DNA of 64,000 nt from positions 82,407 through 146,406 of the IMG/VR virus record IMGVR_UViG_3300012269_000002. The stretch is one strand, 5' to 3'. A program made the position numbers and the translations under genes. The first letter of the stretch is position 1, and each line of letters opens with the position of its first letter. The DNA is from a virus (taxonomy: Duplodnaviria > Heunggongvirae > Uroviricota > Caudoviricetes). This document shows positions 52,774 through 57,381 of this stretch, piece by piece. Under the pieces are notes generated by a model that did not search any database, was not told where the DNA came from, and saw only the letters and a program-made list of their open reading frames with translations.

Positions 52774-52861
52774 TCGAAGCACTTCCTTAGTATTTGTGCT
52801 AACGTGTTTGGCTATGCGTAGTTGCGTTGAGTAGAAAAATAATTTAGTAAATAAATACAGA

Positions 52862-53146
52862 ATGAAAACAGTAGAAGAAAAAATAAACCTTATCATTAAA
52901 TGGTTAAACTACCCAGATAGAGGAAATGTAGGTATGTCTATAAACGAATTAGAAAAACTAAAAGAGCAATTACGTATAGCTGATGTTATGTGTTGTTCTT
53001 TTTGCAAGGAAAAAATAAAGTTTGGCGAACACGAGTATATGCACCGAGAAGGTTGCGGATGTATGGACGAACCACCACAAACAATAGTGGACTTTGAGCG
53101 ATTAGATACTGGACACACAGTTACTAATGGTTATCCGCTAGAATAA
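52862..53146 (+). CDS. hypothetical Cys-rich protein (island gene)
   Basis: CCSFCKEK ... HREGCGCMDE; GC-richer codon usage than the rest of the window. Confidence 0.35.
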   Translation: MKTVEEKINLIIKWLNYPDRGNVGMSINELEKLKEQLRIADVMCCSFCKEKIKFGEHEYMHREGCGCMDEPPQTIVDFERLDTGHTVTNGYPLE

Positions 53147-53152
53147 CACATA

Positions 53153-53205
53153 ACGTACCTGTATAAAAAAACATTAAAACGATTTTTTATACAGGTACGT
53201 TATTT
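53153..53205 (+). terminator. very strong hairpin (perfect 18-bp stem acgtacctgtataaaaaa / ttttttatacaggtacgt, 12-nt loop) followed by a T-run
   Basis: Direct reading; likely an intrinsic terminator or structured regulatory element. Confidence 0.6.
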
Positions 53206-53442
53206 TTAGTTTTCTTTTCGAGCGATGGTAAATTGCGTAGCAAAACCTAACGAAATGTTAAAGTTTAAGTATAAACTGAAAATAAATGCAAAAACATTAG
53301 GTTAGTGTTAAGTATATGCTTATATTTGTAGTGTTGAAAGTAATCAACGAAACTAAAACAAACATTATGACAACTGACAACTTATAACGAAAACGGAATT
53401 GAAATTACAGAAACACAATTAGAAAACAAATTAGATTCTTTA

Positions 53443-53748
53443 ATGAATGATGAAGTAACTGTTAAAACAACTAAAGAGACTAACGTTACTGGAAGAATGG
53501 AAAGTGAAACTATTTATACTGTTGAATGTGGTTTAGAAACTGCTTTAGTAACTATTGATTCTAATGATATTTATAAAGATTACGTTGTAAGTATTTTTGA
53601 TAATAGATTTAACTATGAAAATAAAATAGTGGAATTTACAAATAAGTTAGAAGCTAAAAAATACGCTTTTTCTACTTATAAAAAAATGGTTTCTAACTAT
53701 CAAAAAAGAGCCAATATGTTGAATACAGAATGGAAAAAACAGAATTAA
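53443..53748 (+). CDS. hypothetical protein (island gene)
   Basis: ORF. Confidence 0.3.
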   Translation: MNDEVTVKTTKETNVTGRMESETIYTVECGLETALVTIDSNDIYKDYVVSIFDNRFNYENKIVEFTNKLEAKKYAFSTYKKMVSNYQKRANMLNTEWKKQN

Positions 53749-53936
53749 ACACAGACAAGGCATTACATATAGGTGGTGTTATGTGCAGTGTTTGTCAAGG
53801 TTATGGATATACTATTGAAATAGAGGCTAATTGTTGCGGAAATTATAAAAATTACGGATGTTGTGGTGTGCCTGAACCTGTACAAGTACAAGTTGAATGT
53901 AAATGCGATAGAGGATTTGTGCCACATTGCACATAA
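53730..53936 (+). CDS. hypothetical Cys-rich small protein
   Basis: CSVCQG ... CCGNYKNYGCCG ... CKCD. Confidence 0.3.
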   Translation: MEKTELNTDKALHIGGVMCSVCQGYGYTIEIEANCCGNYKNYGCCGVPEPVQVQVECKCDRGFVPHCT

Positions 53937-54102
53937 CGTTGAGTGTAAAAAATCGTTTTAATGTTTTTTACATATTGTTGTATGCAGTACGGATTAATAG
54001 AGCAAAACTAAAATATATGATTAGATTTAATAAAGAAATACAAGGTACAAGGGAAAGCGACCATTACGCTACACCTAAAAAGTTTTATCAAAAATTACGG
54101 AA

Positions 54103-54528: not shown

Positions 54529-54771
54529 ATGCCACCAAAATTTATAACACCAAAACAAAAAGCAAAGGATATTTTCGATAAAATGGAAGTTGATGTAAAT
54601 AATTACAATAGTAATTATCCAACTTATTCCAACAAACAAGCCAAAGAATGTTCGTTGATTTTGGTAATTGAGATTATTGAAGAACTAAAGGAATTTGATA
54701 CAATGGATGGTTATTCTGCTGCTCGAATAGATTTTTGGACTGAGGTCAAAGCTGAATTGGAAACACTATGA
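54529..54771 (+). CDS. hypothetical protein
   Basis: ORF. Confidence 0.3.
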   Translation: MPPKFITPKQKAKDIFDKMEVDVNNYNSNYPTYSNKQAKECSLILVIEIIEELKEFDTMDGYSAARIDFWTEVKAELETL

Positions 54772-54892
54772 TAGCCTTGCACATAACGTTTTGTGTATGG
54801 CAAGTAGCCGAAGCACTAAGATTGAATTAAAAACTGAATATTAATAGGCTATTTGCTATACACGTTGTTAGCATTAGTTAAACTTAACAAAA

Positions 54893-55129
54893 ATGGAAAA
54901 CACAAAAGGATTAGCGACAGGTGACTTAGACTGCCAAGGAAATAAAATTTATTATGAAACAAGTAAATTAAAATTACCTGACGGAACGATTGGTAAAATA
55001 ATGTTTGATACAGGTCAATTAGCTGCCTACTTTGCTAAGTGGGAAGATGGAGGCTATATAGTAGAAACTGATGGTATAAATAATCACAAATCATTTTATT
55101 TACGTGACTGTGAGGTTGTCACTAATTAA
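54893..55129 (+). CDS. hypothetical protein
   Basis: ORF. Confidence 0.3.
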   Translation: MENTKGLATGDLDCQGNKIYYETSKLKLPDGTIGKIMFDTGQLAAYFAKWEDGGYIVETDGINNHKSFYLRDCEVVTN

Positions 55130-55211
55130 TGCTAACGAATGGTGCTATGGTGCGTTGCTTTTCGCAATGCATTATAGCACGTGTTGTACACTGTATGGCG
55201 GTTAAATAGAA

Positions 55212-56267
55212 ATGAACTTTAAAATGAAAAATGAAATGAGTAATAATATTTTTTTGAGCGGTAGCAAAATTGCTGACGTAGGAAGCAAAATAAACGTGCT
55301 ATCTTTATTTGATGGAATAAGTTGCGGACAAGTTGCTTTGGAACGTGCAGGAATGGATGTAAACAAATACTTTGCTTCTGAAATTGATAAACACGCTATT
55401 AAGGTAACACAAAGCAATTACCCCACTACAATACAAATTGGTGATGTAACGAAAGTTAAAGGTACTGACTTACCAAACATAGATTTATTGATGGGTGGAA
55501 GCCCGTGCCAAGGATTTAGTTTTAGTGGTAAGCAACTAAACTTTGATGACCCGAGAAGTAAATTATTTTTTGAATTTGTACGATTAATCGAAGAAGTAAA
55601 ACCTAAATATTGGCTACTTGAAAACGTAGTAATGAAGCAAGAATACCAAGACGTAATAAGCCAACATTTAGGCGTTGAACCTGTAAAATATAATAGTTCT
55701 TTAACTTCTGCTCAAAACCGTGTGAGATTATACTGGGCAAACTTTGACATAACCGAGCCAACTGACCAAGGTATAAAACTTGAAGATGTATTGGAACATA
55801 CCGAAATGATTGGACCAAGTGCGATACGTGGAAGAAGATTAAATAAAGCAACTATTTTAGGAAGAAGATTAGATAAACGTGGTAAACGCCAAGACTATGA
55901 TAAAACCGTACCGATAACCCAATGCCTTGAAGTAAGAGCAACTAACAGAGATAAAAGTAACTGCCTTACTACGGTAGCAAAAGACACGGTTTTAACCACA
56001 ATGGAGATAGGGCGACACCCTGACGCTTTTAATAAAAAACTCCCTTACAGGAATTACACTAAAATTGAAAGATGTAGATTAATGAATTTGCCCGATAATT
56101 ATTGTGATGAAGTAAGCCTGAACCAAACAGTAAAAGCAACTGGAAACGGTTGGGAAGTTGGAATGATTACACACATTTTTAAAAGTATGAGTAAGAAAAA
56201 AGCGAGGGAAGAAAAAAATATTATTACGACTGATATGCACGAACCTTCAATTAAAACTGGAACGTAG
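55212..56267 (+). CDS. DNA (cytosine-5)-methyltransferase
   Basis: Motif I is LSLFDGISCGQ, motif IV is GGSPCQGFSFSGK, and motif VI is WLLENV. A C-terminal target-recognition region is present. Confidence 0.8.
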   Translation: MNFKMKNEMSNNIFLSGSKIADVGSKINVLSLFDGISCGQVALERAGMDVNKYFASEIDKHAIKVTQSNYPTTIQIGDVTKVKGTDLPNIDLLMGGSPCQGFSFSGKQLNFDDPRSKLFFEFVRLIEEVKPKYWLLENVVMKQEYQDVISQHLGVEPVKYNSSLTSAQNRVRLYWANFDITEPTDQGIKLEDVLEHTEMIGPSAIRGRRLNKATILGRRLDKRGKRQDYDKTVPITQCLEVRATNRDKSNCLTTVAKDTVLTTMEIGRHPDAFNKKLPYRNYTKIERCRLMNLPDNYCDEVSLNQTVKATGNGWEVGMITHIFKSMSKKKAREEKNIITTDMHEPSIKTGT

Positions 56268-56405
56268 CCATATTGTGTACAACGGTTTGTATATGGTTAG
56301 TTGGCTTTTTGCCAATTAATTATATACGGTGTTACCTGTTTTTTAAAATGCGTGGTTTTGCAAAAACCAAATACACAATAGTAAGAACAAACTAAAATTA
56401 AAAAT

Positions 56406-57326
56406 ATGAATGTATTAAGTTTATTTGATGGGATGAGTTGCGGACAAATAGCACTCGATAAATTAGGAATTAAAGTAGATAATTATTTTGCAAGTGAGAT
56501 TGACGAACCTGGCATAAAAGTATCTACACACAATTACCCAAATACTAAACATTTAGGAGATGTTAAAAATATTAACTATAAAGAATTACCAAAAATTGAT
56601 TTATTGATAGGCGGAAGTCCTTGTCAATCTTTTTCATTCGCTGGAAAACAAAAAGGTATGAGCACAAAAGATAATGTTGAAATATTAACATTAGCGCATT
56701 ATTTAGAATTAAAACAAAGTGGTTTTGAGTTTCAAGGACAGTCATATCTATTTTGGGAATATATGTATGCTTTAAATACAATTAAGCCTAAATATTTTTT
56801 ACTTGAAAATGTAAAAATGAGTAATAAGTGGAAAAGTATTTTAACAAATGCTATTGGAGTAGAACCTATTTTAATTAATAGCGAAAGTGTATCTGCACAA
56901 AGTAGACCAAGATTATACTGGACTAATATACCTAATGTTTCACAACCTAAAGATAAAGGGGTTATGCTGAAAAACATAATGGAATTAGATGCTCCTAAAA
57001 AATACGCAATAAAAGACGTAAGAGTAAAAACACTTATGAAGTTTTTAAGTAAAAATTATAAAGCGTGTGGAAAAGTACCAACATTGACAACTGAATTAGC
57101 ACATAGTACTGGAAAGAATTTTTACCCAAAAGCGTTAGTTGAAATATTTAATGTATTGGGTTATTATAGAAGATTAACACCAAATGAAGTTGAATCTTTA
57201 CAAACTGTGCCGTTAAACTATACAAACATTGTTAGTGATACAGAAAGGTATAGAATGCTAGGTAATGGCTGGACAGTAGACGTAATTGCTCATATTTTTA
57301 AAGGAATGAGTGAGCCGACCGAGTAA
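56406..57326 (+). CDS. DNA (cytosine-5)-methyltransferase (second copy, diverged)
   Basis: Motifs LSLFDGMSCGQ, GGSPCQSFSFAGK and FLLENV. Confidence 0.8.
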   Translation: MNVLSLFDGMSCGQIALDKLGIKVDNYFASEIDEPGIKVSTHNYPNTKHLGDVKNINYKELPKIDLLIGGSPCQSFSFAGKQKGMSTKDNVEILTLAHYLELKQSGFEFQGQSYLFWEYMYALNTIKPKYFLLENVKMSNKWKSILTNAIGVEPILINSESVSAQSRPRLYWTNIPNVSQPKDKGVMLKNIMELDAPKKYAIKDVRVKTLMKFLSKNYKACGKVPTLTTELAHSTGKNFYPKALVEIFNVLGYYRRLTPNEVESLQTVPLNYTNIVSDTERYRMLGNGWTVDVIAHIFKGMSEPTE

Positions 57327-57381
57327 GTCGCCTTTTTAATTACAGGTAACAACTGTATATAACAAGTAATACCAAAGCAAA

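Follow-up and report, generated by a model that had tools for sequence, protein, structure and literature searches.

A probable integron-like array of gene cassettes in a phage of the Caudoviricetes

Gene cassettes of integrons and of CALINs (clusters of attC sites lacking an integrase) are bounded by imperfect palindromes whose AAC...GTT ends are invariant and which contain a variable central loop as well as bases that are unpaired or bulged out. These sites often overlap the stop codon of the cassette ORF, one of their strands is the better folder, and the crossover falls in the conserved AAC. The arrays are co-oriented and mostly hold one gene per cassette, as do CALINs in phages (PMC9892861). 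In Polaribacter phage P12002L, HattCI predicted one copy of the element described here as an attC site, and the array-terminal sequence recombined with attI1 under IntI1; the single canonical hairpin copy that was tested, P12002L_attC1, was left unrecombined by IntI1, unlike an integron site (Qi et al. 2023, PMC9892861). T4-like phages carry PeSLs, short conserved stem-loop motifs that lie beside variable accessory ORFs in hyperplastic regions and mark the limits of indels and replacements between close relatives. PeSLs are early promoter and terminator units swapped via homologous recombination (PMC2839356, PMC4122927).

The window analysed here is a 64-kb stretch (positions 82,407 to 146,406) of IMG/VR virus record IMGVR_UViG_3300012269_000002. 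A composite palindromic element occurs at each gene boundary between 52203 and 57373, seven times as a hairpin, once as a half copy and once as the terminal site. This region is probably an integron-like array of eight co-oriented gene cassettes without a recombinase gene. The gene-capture system that it would represent is very common in Bacteroidota phages and was not previously described. The initial annotation had delimited an island at 52780-57340. The start lies one gene earlier, at 52203, and the end at 57373; the ParB-like gene that had been placed upstream thus belongs to the unit.

All features of the array are on the plus strand. The first element, E0 (52203-52299), has a degenerate left arm ending in TAATACTGAC (TGAC 52212-52215), hairpin arms at 52221-52239 and 52274-52292, a 34-nt loop with three AACTT boxes and the tail AGTACGG. 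It precedes the 137-aa ORF of C0 (52360-52773), which has a weak ParB_N-like match and starts with a leader, MELRKFIATTIREYLNE, common to many cassette ORFs of other arrays. E1 (52792-52828) consists of a 5' half with left arm ATTTGTGCTAAC (TAAC 52800-52803); its 3' partner is absent, and it is a short or decayed form of the element. The Cys-rich 94-aa ORF of C1 (52862-53146) has no family match. In E2 (53143-53205), arm ATAACACATAAC (TAAC 53151-53154) overlaps the stop codon at 53144-53146, and 53148-53170 pairs perfectly with 53183-53205. A perfect hairpin had been noted here (53153-53200), and it exists, at about 53150-53205, with 21-22 perfect pairs (z = -6.3) rather than 18 bp. C2 (53443-53936) holds two overlapping ORFs of 101 aa (53443-53748) and 68 aa (53730-53936); the latter is Cys-rich and takes its stop from the TAA of E3's TAAC. 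E3 (53926-53988) has arm ATTGCACATAAC (TAAC 53934-53937), an imperfect hairpin and the tail CAGTACGG, and its core (53943-53969) is the reverse complement of the E2 core.

C3 (54017-54342) encodes a 29-aa ORF (54017-54106) and, through an ATGA overlap, a 79-aa DUF3850/ASCH protein (54103-54342). E4 (54351-54489) has arm ATTGCGTACAAC, a stem formed by 54368-54387 and 54460-54479, a 72-nt loop with AACTT boxes, and then TGTTATGTGC; it is the window copy closest to the family consensus. The 80-aa ORF of C4 (54529-54771) matches phrog_21441, a family of unknown function. E5 (54776-54872; arm CTTGCACATAAC, TAAC 54784-54787, stem 54792-54809 with 54847-54864) precedes the 78-aa ORF of C5 (orf78, 54893-55129). 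The arm of E6 (55125-55191; ATTAATGCTAAC, TAAC 55133-55136) overlaps the stop codon, and its stem (55142-55158 with 55164-55180) has 17 bp including three G·U pairs. C6 encodes a C5-cytosine DNA methyltransferase of 351 aa (MTase 1, 55212-56267; PF00145, E 3e-42). E7 (56272-56336) has arm ATTGTGTACAAC, a stem of 18-19 bp with G·U pairs (56287-56305 with 56311-56329), and then TGTTACC. A second C5-cytosine DNA methyltransferase of 306 aa (MTase 2, 56406-57326; PF00145, E 4e-40) forms C7, and the array closes with an attI-like terminal site at 57339-57373, ATTACAGGTAA/C AACTGT ATATAACAAGTAATACC.

The motifs that had been read as the island's own promoter set are complementary parts of one palindrome: TGCACATAACGTT is the outer arm and TTATACAC(G) the inner 3' arm of a single composite element, and TAAC is the junction of cassette gain and loss. 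The window's 5' halves (eight copies) and 3' halves (seven) align as a family and pair with each other. The recurring motif itself is confirmed, as CACATAACGT occurs three times in the 64 kb, always on the plus strand (53147, 53930 and 54780), and TTATACAC(G)-like elements exist at 52285, 54470, 54856 and 56320. As to the overlap with the preceding stop codon, the TAA of the motif is the stop of the upstream ORF at 53930, the stop sits within the preceding arm at 53147, and at 54780 a few bases separate the end of the stop codon from the motif. Several window copies have diverged or are incomplete: E1 is a half site, E4 and E7 carry CAAC, and E4 alone gives a good score with the family profile.

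A 20-position pattern searched against IMG/VR stretches matches at least 118 of them, compared with about three expected by our own estimate from an assumed collection size, and also about 28 MAG contigs, mostly of Bacteroidota. The element lies between MTase genes in P12002L, and in phages whose GC ranges from 28-41% it borders small genes by the hundred that are unrelated to one another. The family consensus reads 5' ATTGCATATAA/C GGTTGG GTGTATGAGAAG, a loop of 5-83 nt, then CTTTCTTATACAC CTT GTTATATGC. Copies share the orientation of the upstream ORF in 93% of cases, and stop codons peak at +2, 0 and -10, where the peak at -10 is the TAA within TAAC. In sequence, the 11-nt arm ATTGCATATAA is similar to the Xer-binding arms of dif (GGTGCGCATAA) and pdif (ATTTCGTATAA).

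Structure was analysed in 164 unique copies. The inner stem covaries (GC132/AT26, GC78/AT34, AT85/CG30, GC56/TA49 and, at positions 18 and 14, GC97/CG42), with invariant G·T wobbles and no A·C at all. Of 163 copies, 156 fold better on the coding strand (p = 5e-28; ddG -2.9 kcal/mol). No covariation is seen in the 8 nt outside TAAC/GTTA, as expected if they are parts of different cassettes. Inversion of the loop is never seen (AACTT 133 vs AAGTT 4), and AACTT boxes of fixed orientation occur both in loops and just upstream of start codons. Covariation alone fits a role as folded DNA or as RNA alike, the hairpins being transcribed with the genes.

Nearly identical genomes differ by whole cassettes, and the junction is the invariant TAAC. 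A sister contig of the same phage (L237), with flanks 99.965% and 100% identical to the window, has four different cassettes where the window has orf78, MTase 1 and MTase 2; C5 is precisely absent, and a Dam-like gene replaces the C5-cytosine MTases. Identity stops after CACATAAC/G, right after TAACG in E5 (54788), and restarts at the TAAC at 57347. Contig L257 equals L255 plus one cassette, inserted at the terminal site between ATTACACATAAC and TAGATTATATC, 60 nt before the recombinase ATG. L169 and L128 have in common a 394-nt cassette of 100% identity with TAAC at either end, and L106 and L182 repeat this pattern. Among long HSPs, only 13 of 149 internal ends fall near anchored sites (5'-half TAAC or 3'-half GTTA), so the mosaicism of these phages is to a large extent ordinary.

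In other phages, about 50 nt separate the terminal site of the array from a downstream gene for a 266-aa tyrosine recombinase of the Xer/IntI clade, with domains PF00589 and PF13495. The gene is downstream of the array and co-oriented with it in at least 12 loci, and in nine the terminal site lies at -48 to -58 from its ATG. Its best NCBIfam matches are, in order, XerA/'integron integrase', TIGR02249 and XerD/C. Unlike integron integrases, it scores below every curated NCBIfam cut-off (150-176 bits for IntI, cut-off 265), and as judged from the IntI model match in two stretches it appears to be missing the IntI-specific insertion. Clustering at 90% identity gives at least 7,927 clusters for the family. 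A tyrosine-recombinase profile search of the 64-kb window found no gene (best score 7.6 bits), which makes this array an analogue of a CALIN. Its terminal site has the architecture of the sites upstream of recombinase genes in other phages and of the P12002L 'attC2'. The pairing of enzyme and site rests on adjacency; the 266-aa protein could be a phage integrase of the ordinary kind, with an attP that shares the arm by coincidence.

We propose that a cassette starts with a hairpin-forming site right after the invariant (T/C)AAC, continues with its ORF or ORFs and ends with the 11-nt arm ATTGnnnnTAA, often the source of the stop codon. The array would end in a simple core-type site (arm-TAA/C, 6 nt, ATATA...). 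Cassettes would be gained, lost and swapped by site-specific recombination with the crossover inside TAAC, where the junctions place it directly. The substrate may be the folded coding strand, as for attC, with an outer TAACGG/TTGTTA helix, a conserved 3-nt TTG bulge, a covarying inner helix and fixed G·T pairs, and the candidate enzyme is the 266-aa recombinase. For the window array, a recombinase would act in trans: one from another part of the genome, one from a co-infecting phage, or the Xer of the host. Xer-dependent modules, namely Acinetobacter pdif modules and IMEX elements, likewise cross over at the border of arm and spacer, and the spacers of their partner sites differ as they do here, which would favour the exchange of a single strand with resolution through replication, as in IMEX and integrons. 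Unlike in those modules, the phage sites do not form inverted pairs of 28-bp XerC/XerD sites, have a 7-nt spacer and mostly possess a long hairpin partner, and many of the arrays come with a phage-encoded recombinase.

Mobile regulatory cassettes of the PeSL type, in which a terminator/promoter or 5'-UTR unit is shuffled by homologous recombination of conserved copies, are an unlikely explanation. The element does separate accessory genes within a variable region, like the PeSLs of T4-like phages (PMC2839356, PMC4122927), and the AACTT boxes would suit such a unit. Host-type TAnnTTTG is absent upstream of array genes, so another expression signal is needed, and an H6-like hairpin common to two cassettes with different genes (80% identity) suggests that homologous exchange operates too. 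However, junctions are exact at TAAC even with non-homologous partners (the terminal sites of L128, L182 and L255 share only the arm), recombinase and core-type site are in fixed linkage with the element, and loops of 5 nt to 83 nt are tolerated. Neither a promoter nor a terminator consensus could be recognised: sigma-70-type matches are at chance level (32 found vs 30.6 expected), and no TAnnTTTG promoter, U-tract or other canonical terminator was found. The initial annotation took the motifs for middle or late phage promoters of a self-methylation module, which we consider highly improbable. The loss of TAnnTTTG on which this drew holds upstream of array starts (0/8 vs 13/40 elsewhere; Fisher p = 0.09) but not throughout, as one copy (53321) lies in an array intergenic region, and the 3' arm TTATACAC is indeed found 26-86 nt upstream of start codons. 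Yet the two supposed promoter motifs form the complementary arms of a single hairpin and vary in a compensatory manner, the TGCACATAACG motif sits at gene 3' ends as a stop codon source, and the same element borders hundreds of unrelated genes in other phages. The recurring motifs are most likely not promoters.

Intercistronic RNA hairpins, such as T7-like RNase III sites or 3'-end stabilisers, conserved through being read by an RNA-binding protein of host or phage, would fit the covariation, the strictly sense-strand G·U pairs, the conserved bulge, the stems of 17-22 bp and the position directly 3' of stop codons. A purely RNA-level element is nevertheless very unlikely, since it leaves the TAAC-exact DNA junctions, the hairpin-less terminal site, the recombinase linkage and the cassette insertion beside the recombinase gene without explanation, and no Rfam family matches it. 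An RNA role could exist alongside a DNA role. Imperfect palindromes, strand-specific folding and a fixed boundary tetranucleotide also recall IS200/IS605 ends and REP/RAYT systems, and TnpB genes account for 3-4 of 150 neighbouring ORFs. We give little credence, however, to selfish MITE-, REP- or IS200/IS605-like repeats moved by a transposase, with an incidental cassette appearance: gene and hairpin travel together as the mobile unit, copies nearly always run in the direction of the genes and adjoin stop codons, they are grouped in one array instead of scattered over 64 kb, and the enzyme linked to the arrays belongs to the tyrosine recombinases rather than to the HUH transposases.

The integron-like reading is further consistent with the core-type site that adjoins the recombinase gene, where new cassettes are found, and with the order on the folding strand (cassettes, attI-like site, sense recombinase gene), which is that of integrons. 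The phage arrays differ from integrons in that cassette ORFs are on the folding strand, which puts the hairpin at the cassette 5' end and aims the ORFs at the recombinase. Their site sequence is strongly conserved (GTGTATGAGAAG / CTTTCTTATACAC), with fixed G·T pairs in place of the classical extrahelical G and T, and their carriers are Bacteroidota phages.

The region is compositionally distinct in codon usage and in intergenic GC, but it is not notably richer in GC as a whole, and the description of its codons as GC-richer does not hold as worded. Its GC of 0.321 vs 0.309 ranks at the 81st percentile among stretches of equal size (p = 0.26 for GC per gene), and GC3 is if anything lower (0.222 vs 0.245, p = 0.29). 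The array is the most deviant contiguous nine-gene block in the window by codon usage (chi2 205-211; block median 53, 90th percentile 88), driven by GGA (44% vs 15% in the rest), GTA (51% vs 29%), TGC (41% vs 13%), GAC (31% vs 18%) and TTC (4% vs 27%). Intergenic GC is 0.315 vs 0.209 elsewhere (p = 7e-4). The deviant codon usage and the different genes at this slot in the sister genome bear out the suggestion of acquired cargo, a block that is both foreign and modular.

The annotated cargo was likewise recovered, namely two PF00145 methyltransferases, the DUF3850/ASCH protein (E 6e-31), two small Cys-rich ORFs and the weakly ParB_N-like gene. Judged by their families, these are plausibly anti-restriction or host-takeover genes. 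MTase 1 and MTase 2 share 36% identity, and both are orphans without a restriction partner, like other orphan DNA methyltransferases of phages, from which they differ in being interchangeable cassettes. Other arrays carry tandem N6_N4, D12 and MT-A70 MTases, four in L035 and three in L043.

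The window is AT-rich (30.9% GC), is part of a large phage genome and carries nearly all of its genes on the + strand. Positions 52203-57373 probably form an array of eight co-oriented cassettes (C0 to C7) that works like an integron array. The array encodes two C5 methyltransferases, MTase 1 (55212-56267, +) and MTase 2 (56406-57326, +), that share 36% identity and match PF00145 at full length with 145.5 and 138.8 bits (gathering score 22). A DUF3850/ASCH gene (54103-54342, +) has full-length matches of 106.9 bits to DUF3850 (gathering score 22.9) and 29.4 bits to ASCH (21.2), and a gene at 52360-52773 (+) weakly matches ParB_N. 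These calls bear out the initial annotation, and the remaining array ORFs have no family match. A 29-aa ORF (54017-54106, MIRFNKEIQGTRESDHYATPKKFYQKLRK) forms an ATGA overlap with the DUF3850 start. Its DHYATP..F..L residues resemble the N-terminus of phage Dam-like methyltransferases, and the ORF may be what remains of a gene that was fused or disrupted.

The region had been described as a compositionally distinct island with GC-richer codon usage. Its GC content is ordinary (0.321 vs 0.309, 81st percentile of same-size windows), and array genes do not differ from the rest in per-gene GC (p = 0.26) or GC3 (p = 0.29), so a GC island is rejected. Distinctness is retained for codon usage and intergenic GC. 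Array codon choice is the most deviant among all contiguous 9-gene blocks (chi2 205-211; median 53, 90th percentile 88), driven by more GGA, GTA, TGC and GAC and fewer TTC and AGG codons, and intergenic GC is 0.315 vs 0.209 elsewhere (p = 7e-4). TAnnTTTG, which we take to be the Bacteroidota -7 promoter motif, precedes many window genes; in the array it precedes none of 8 genes, vs 13 of 40 elsewhere (p = 0.09). Consensus scans of the array found sigma-70-like promoter matches no more often than by chance and no U-tract terminators (2.0 expected), and both canonical signals were dismissed as explanations.

The recurring motif CACATAACGT does occur three times in the 64 kb, every time inside the array region. 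Folding and repeat analysis showed that the motifs taken for a promoter set are instead parts of one element: TGCACATAACGTT forms its outer 5' flank and TTATACAC(G) its inner 3' arm. Each stop codon in the array is directly followed or overlapped by an arm, ATTGnnnn(T/C)AAC, and then by a hairpin of 17-22 bp in which the mismatches read as G·U on the + strand; the differences between hairpins H6 and H7 are compensatory. Seven hairpin copies (E0 and E2-E7, all +), the half copy E1 and a hairpin-less terminal site (57339-57373) make up nine sites within 5.2 kb, and no further copy was found in the 64 kb outside the array. The E2 core (53166-53192) and E3 core (53943-53969) are mutual reverse complements with flanks in one orientation. 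The initial observation is confirmed in part. Its interpretation also holds in part: the block is modular foreign cargo with methyltransferases, but its motifs are most likely recombination-site parts and not promoters.

Structure statistics were drawn from 164 unique paired copies. The inner helix covaries at five pairs (GC132/AT26; GC78/AT34/CG4; AT85/CG30; GC56/TA49; and, at positions 18 and 14, GC97/CG42) and has an invariant G·T at two positions, while the TAACGG-TTGTTA pairing includes two further G·T pairs; A·C pairs are absent from all 164. A TTG bulge of 3 nt is conserved. Folding energies computed with DNA parameters favour the coding strand over its complement in 156 of 163 copies (mean difference -2.9 kcal/mol). 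Eight positions of the outer arms outside TAAC/GTTA are complementary in the consensus and lack covariation, a lack that follows if the arms are read as parts of different cassettes. Loops have a median length of 45 nt (range 5-83). Loops also carry an AACTT box (GCACnnAACTTnnAT), with 1-3 per hairpin loop and again 10-30 nt ahead of start codons (window 52246-52290, 54400-54430 and 54870-54892; also in loops of the related contigs L043, L039 and L010). This box may be a cassette-borne promoter or translation signal. Its orientation in the loops is fixed (133 vs 4), which excludes frequent inversion; recombinase-driven invertible promoters (invertons) were accordingly rejected on this ratio, the G of G·T always lying in the 5' arm and the absence of A·C. 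The loop of E2 and E3, TCGTTTTAATG, recurs in hairpins of Polaribacter phage P12002L (30840-30975), L086, L088 and L257 (9320-9365), which look like a separate subtype common to several phages.

Cassette turnover is seen directly in a sister contig, L237, which is the same phage: identity to the window is 99.965% over 40701-54800 and 100% over 57347-62000. Between these stretches, window positions 54788-57346, holding orf78 of cassette C5 (54893-55129) and both methyltransferase genes, are swapped in L237 for four other cassettes, which encode a Dam-like protein (228 aa) as well as ORF products of 49, 89 and 130 aa. Identity stops directly after CTTGCACATAAC|G, where L237 continues into an H6-like hairpin such that C5 is precisely absent, and restarts exactly at the terminal-site TAAC. 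Both array versions are present in sister samples. The assemblies L248, L249 and L253 end about 35 nt before the homologue of gene 57382, at the array terminal site, as expected of independent assemblies if the population is polymorphic there.

Other lineages have equally exact junctions. L169 and L128 have in common a 394-nt cassette of 100% identity with TAAC at both borders; past the downstream TAAC, L128 has non-element sequence and then, 36 nt further on, a recombinase start codon. The pair L106/L182 shows a similar pattern. L255, L256 and L257 encode an identical recombinase, and L257 has one extra cassette (hairpin, 177-aa ORF and ..ATTGTGTATAAC) that sits exactly at ATTACACATAAC|TAGATTATATC. 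These junctions were taken from cassette-bounded HSPs and near-identical genome pairs. In bulk mapping of HSP end points, a first pass was confounded by similarity between elements, and a stricter pass gave only weak enrichment (13/149). Three IMG/VR contigs found via a 402-aa window gene (L001-L003) share no other gene in the compared 44-64 kb part and were uninformative. That gene (50701-51909) encodes a protein with a C-terminal-like domain of DFP, the DNA/pantothenate metabolism flavoprotein. From these data we take a cassette to consist of a hairpin site, one or more ORFs and an 11-nt arm, with crossover inside TAAC and turnover concentrated at the terminal attI-like site.

The window encodes no tyrosine recombinase in its 64 kb. 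In at least 12 related loci, a tyrosine recombinase of about 266 aa (264-269) with PF00589 and PF13495 domains lies downstream of and co-oriented with the array. Among NCBIfam models it comes nearest to XerA/'integron integrase', TIGR02249 and XerD/C, each matched under its cut-off; for TIGR02249 the score is 150-176 bits (cut-off 265), split in two stretches. At 90% identity, the recombinase family numbers at least 7,927 clusters, and the contigs that carry it reach 174 kb. Nine loci have a conserved site, arm-TAA|C-6nt-ATATA, 48-58 nt ahead of the recombinase ATG, and the window array ends in a site of this type (57339-57373) with no recombinase gene after it. Directly after this terminal site is a 75-aa gene (57382-57609) without a family match that has 43-53% identity to genes in L043/L090 and L101; in L043 the homologue is a few hundred bases past the last array gene.

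Profile searches found co-oriented element copies around MTase 1 homologues in other IMG/VR contigs, and methyltransferases can follow one another in runs (four in L035, with an element between each; three in L043; two in L014). A 20-position pattern of the 3' half occurs in at least 118 IMG/VR stretches, against about 3 expected by chance on our own estimate with an assumed collection size. It also occurs in 34 genome-collection contigs. About 28 of them have both halves; most are Bacteroidota MAGs, and dense arrays are frequent among them. Where a 5' half has an upstream ORF, 93% share its orientation, and stop codons cluster at +2, 0 and -10, with the stop at -10 supplied by the TAA of the invariant TAAC. 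Genes flanking elements in a pattern-seeded sample of 150 are chiefly small unknowns; named families are ART-PolyVal (8 of 150), GNAT (4), methyltransferases (3), R2K ATP-grasp and PAPS reductase. No Y1/HUH transposase, as would be seen with IS200/IS605 or REP/RAYT, is among the commonest 25 of 111 Pfam families of these neighbours, and TnpB appears 3-4 times.

The sites resemble integron attC sites in their invariant TAAC/GTTA, 5-83-nt loop, TTG bulge, covarying stem and strand-biased folding. An attI-like site precedes the recombinase ATG in related loci, and the L257 insertion lies exactly there. An integron sensu stricto has an IntI integrase, a tyrosine recombinase with an additional IntI-specific domain and a score above the TIGR02249 cut-off. 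On this definition the array is not one: the window has no tyrosine recombinase, and the recombinases of related loci fall under that cut-off and are shorter than IntI (264-269 vs about 320 aa). On a Pc promoter, which in integrons drives promoterless cassettes, consensus scans alone bear, with TAnnTTTG ahead of none of 8 array genes and sigma-70-like matches at chance. Provided that its sites count as attC-like, nine of them in 5.2 kb of a recombinase-less 64 kb qualify the window array as a CALIN. Followed along the folding strand, cassettes, terminal site and recombinase come in the integron order; unlike in integrons, the ORFs are on the folding strand. The arm-7-arm layout and TAA|C junction also fit the 11-6/8-11 core site of a Xer/dif-type module, which XerC/D would bind and cut at the arm/spacer border, and the arm may resemble dif arms.

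Using integron-detection tools on phage genomes, Qi et al. (2023, PMC9892861) reported that P12002L contains a CALIN with two methyltransferases, whose attC1 was not recombined by IntI1 and whose attC2 recombined with attI1. The primer sequence for attC1 (TGCTAACGGCTACGG...CCATTGTTAGGC) represents one copy of the array element, and attC2 is the array-terminal sequence GCCTAAC|AACGGATAAAACAAG, to which the window terminal site is similar. Further element copies lie next to the P12002L methyltransferase and Mom-like genes. A consensus copy had no blastn match in isolated phages, and the family was located in P12002L later by profile HMMs. In the literature we found PeSLs and the study of Qi et al. 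(2023), neither the element family nor its recombinase being described.

We lean towards the view that Bacteroidota phages own a very abundant integron-like gene-capture system, in which a 266-aa Xer/IntI-clade recombinase, an attI-like core about 50 nt upstream of its gene and attC-like sites folding on the coding strand shuffle single-gene cassettes between phages. Its cargo would include DNA methyltransferases, ADP-ribosyltransferases, GNATs and numerous small proteins with an N-terminal MELRKFIATTIREYLNE leader, and the window would represent a live member that lacks the recombinase and whose cassettes turned over recently. The data directly show the element family with its structure, the exact junctions, turnover of cassettes in this phage lineage and, in other phages, the link of the recombinase to the terminal site. 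Beyond these, the substrate would be a folded single strand and the enzyme the 266-aa protein; exchange is predicted to be single-stranded because partner-site spacers differ, and the cargo may serve counter-defence.

The position of the element and its covariation would be accounted for by a PeSL-like regulatory cassette, which we consider unlikely, or by an RNA processing site, which is more doubtful still. Both leave unexplained the exact junctions against non-homologous partners and the linkage to a recombinase. A PeSL joins an early promoter consensus to a terminator stem-loop; the element does have a stem-loop, but no host-type promoter (TAnnTTTG at 0 of 8 genes, sigma-70-like matches at chance) and no U-tract terminator was found. 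PeSLs are exchanged by homologous recombination inside the repeat. Here the best junctions are exact at TAAC between non-homologous partners, but the H6-like hairpin common to cassettes with different genes hints that homologous exchange also occurs. An RNA-level reading finds no counterpart in Rfam, whose covariance models gave no match at gathering score in the array and only chance-level matches (E up to 5), and a known RNA family was thereby discarded. The element may have an RNA role in addition to its DNA role.

Bacterial integrons were recently shown to bank anti-phage defence cassettes. If the integron-like reading is true, phages own a viral mirror of these, a dedicated site-specific engine that acquires and swaps counter-defence and host-takeover genes singly. 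This would explain the spread of orphan methyltransferases among unrelated marine and freshwater Bacteroidota phages, and the two 'attC' sites of P12002L would belong to a native phage system and not be strays from bacterial integrons. The arm-TAAC plus hairpin would be a signature for mining thousands of uncharacterised virome accessory genes, and the compact recombinase/site pair, distinct from IntI/attC, a candidate tool.

Of the 183 ORFs that lie immediately after an element, 26 begin with a near-invariant leader, MELRKFIATTIREYLNE, which is followed by unrelated sequence (ART-PolyVal, ParB-like or unknown). Examples are window 52360-52413, in the ParB-like protein, L126:10441-10968, L177:5321-5722 and L039:7147-7704. 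By analogy with the T4 capsid-targeting sequence, the leader could direct proteins to the capsid or act as a pro-peptide, being cleaved after L-x-E; leader proteins would then be packaged and injected.

Elsewhere, the window carries a tmRNA (26627-26990) and at least 12 clustered tRNA genes (39529-44273), among which the anticodon loops of the calls at 39613, 41138, 43555 and 43715 were not assignable by ARAGORN. A long intergenic region holds a near-perfect palindrome of 24-25 bp (29826-29883, CGTCACAGATAATATCTTATTAAT / ATTAATAAGATATTATCTGTGACG) that is unrelated to the array elements. An RNA-ligase gene (58794-60340) appears to be interrupted by an intein, with Hint/Intein_splicing matches on products of 149 and 325 aa in an annotated sister contig.
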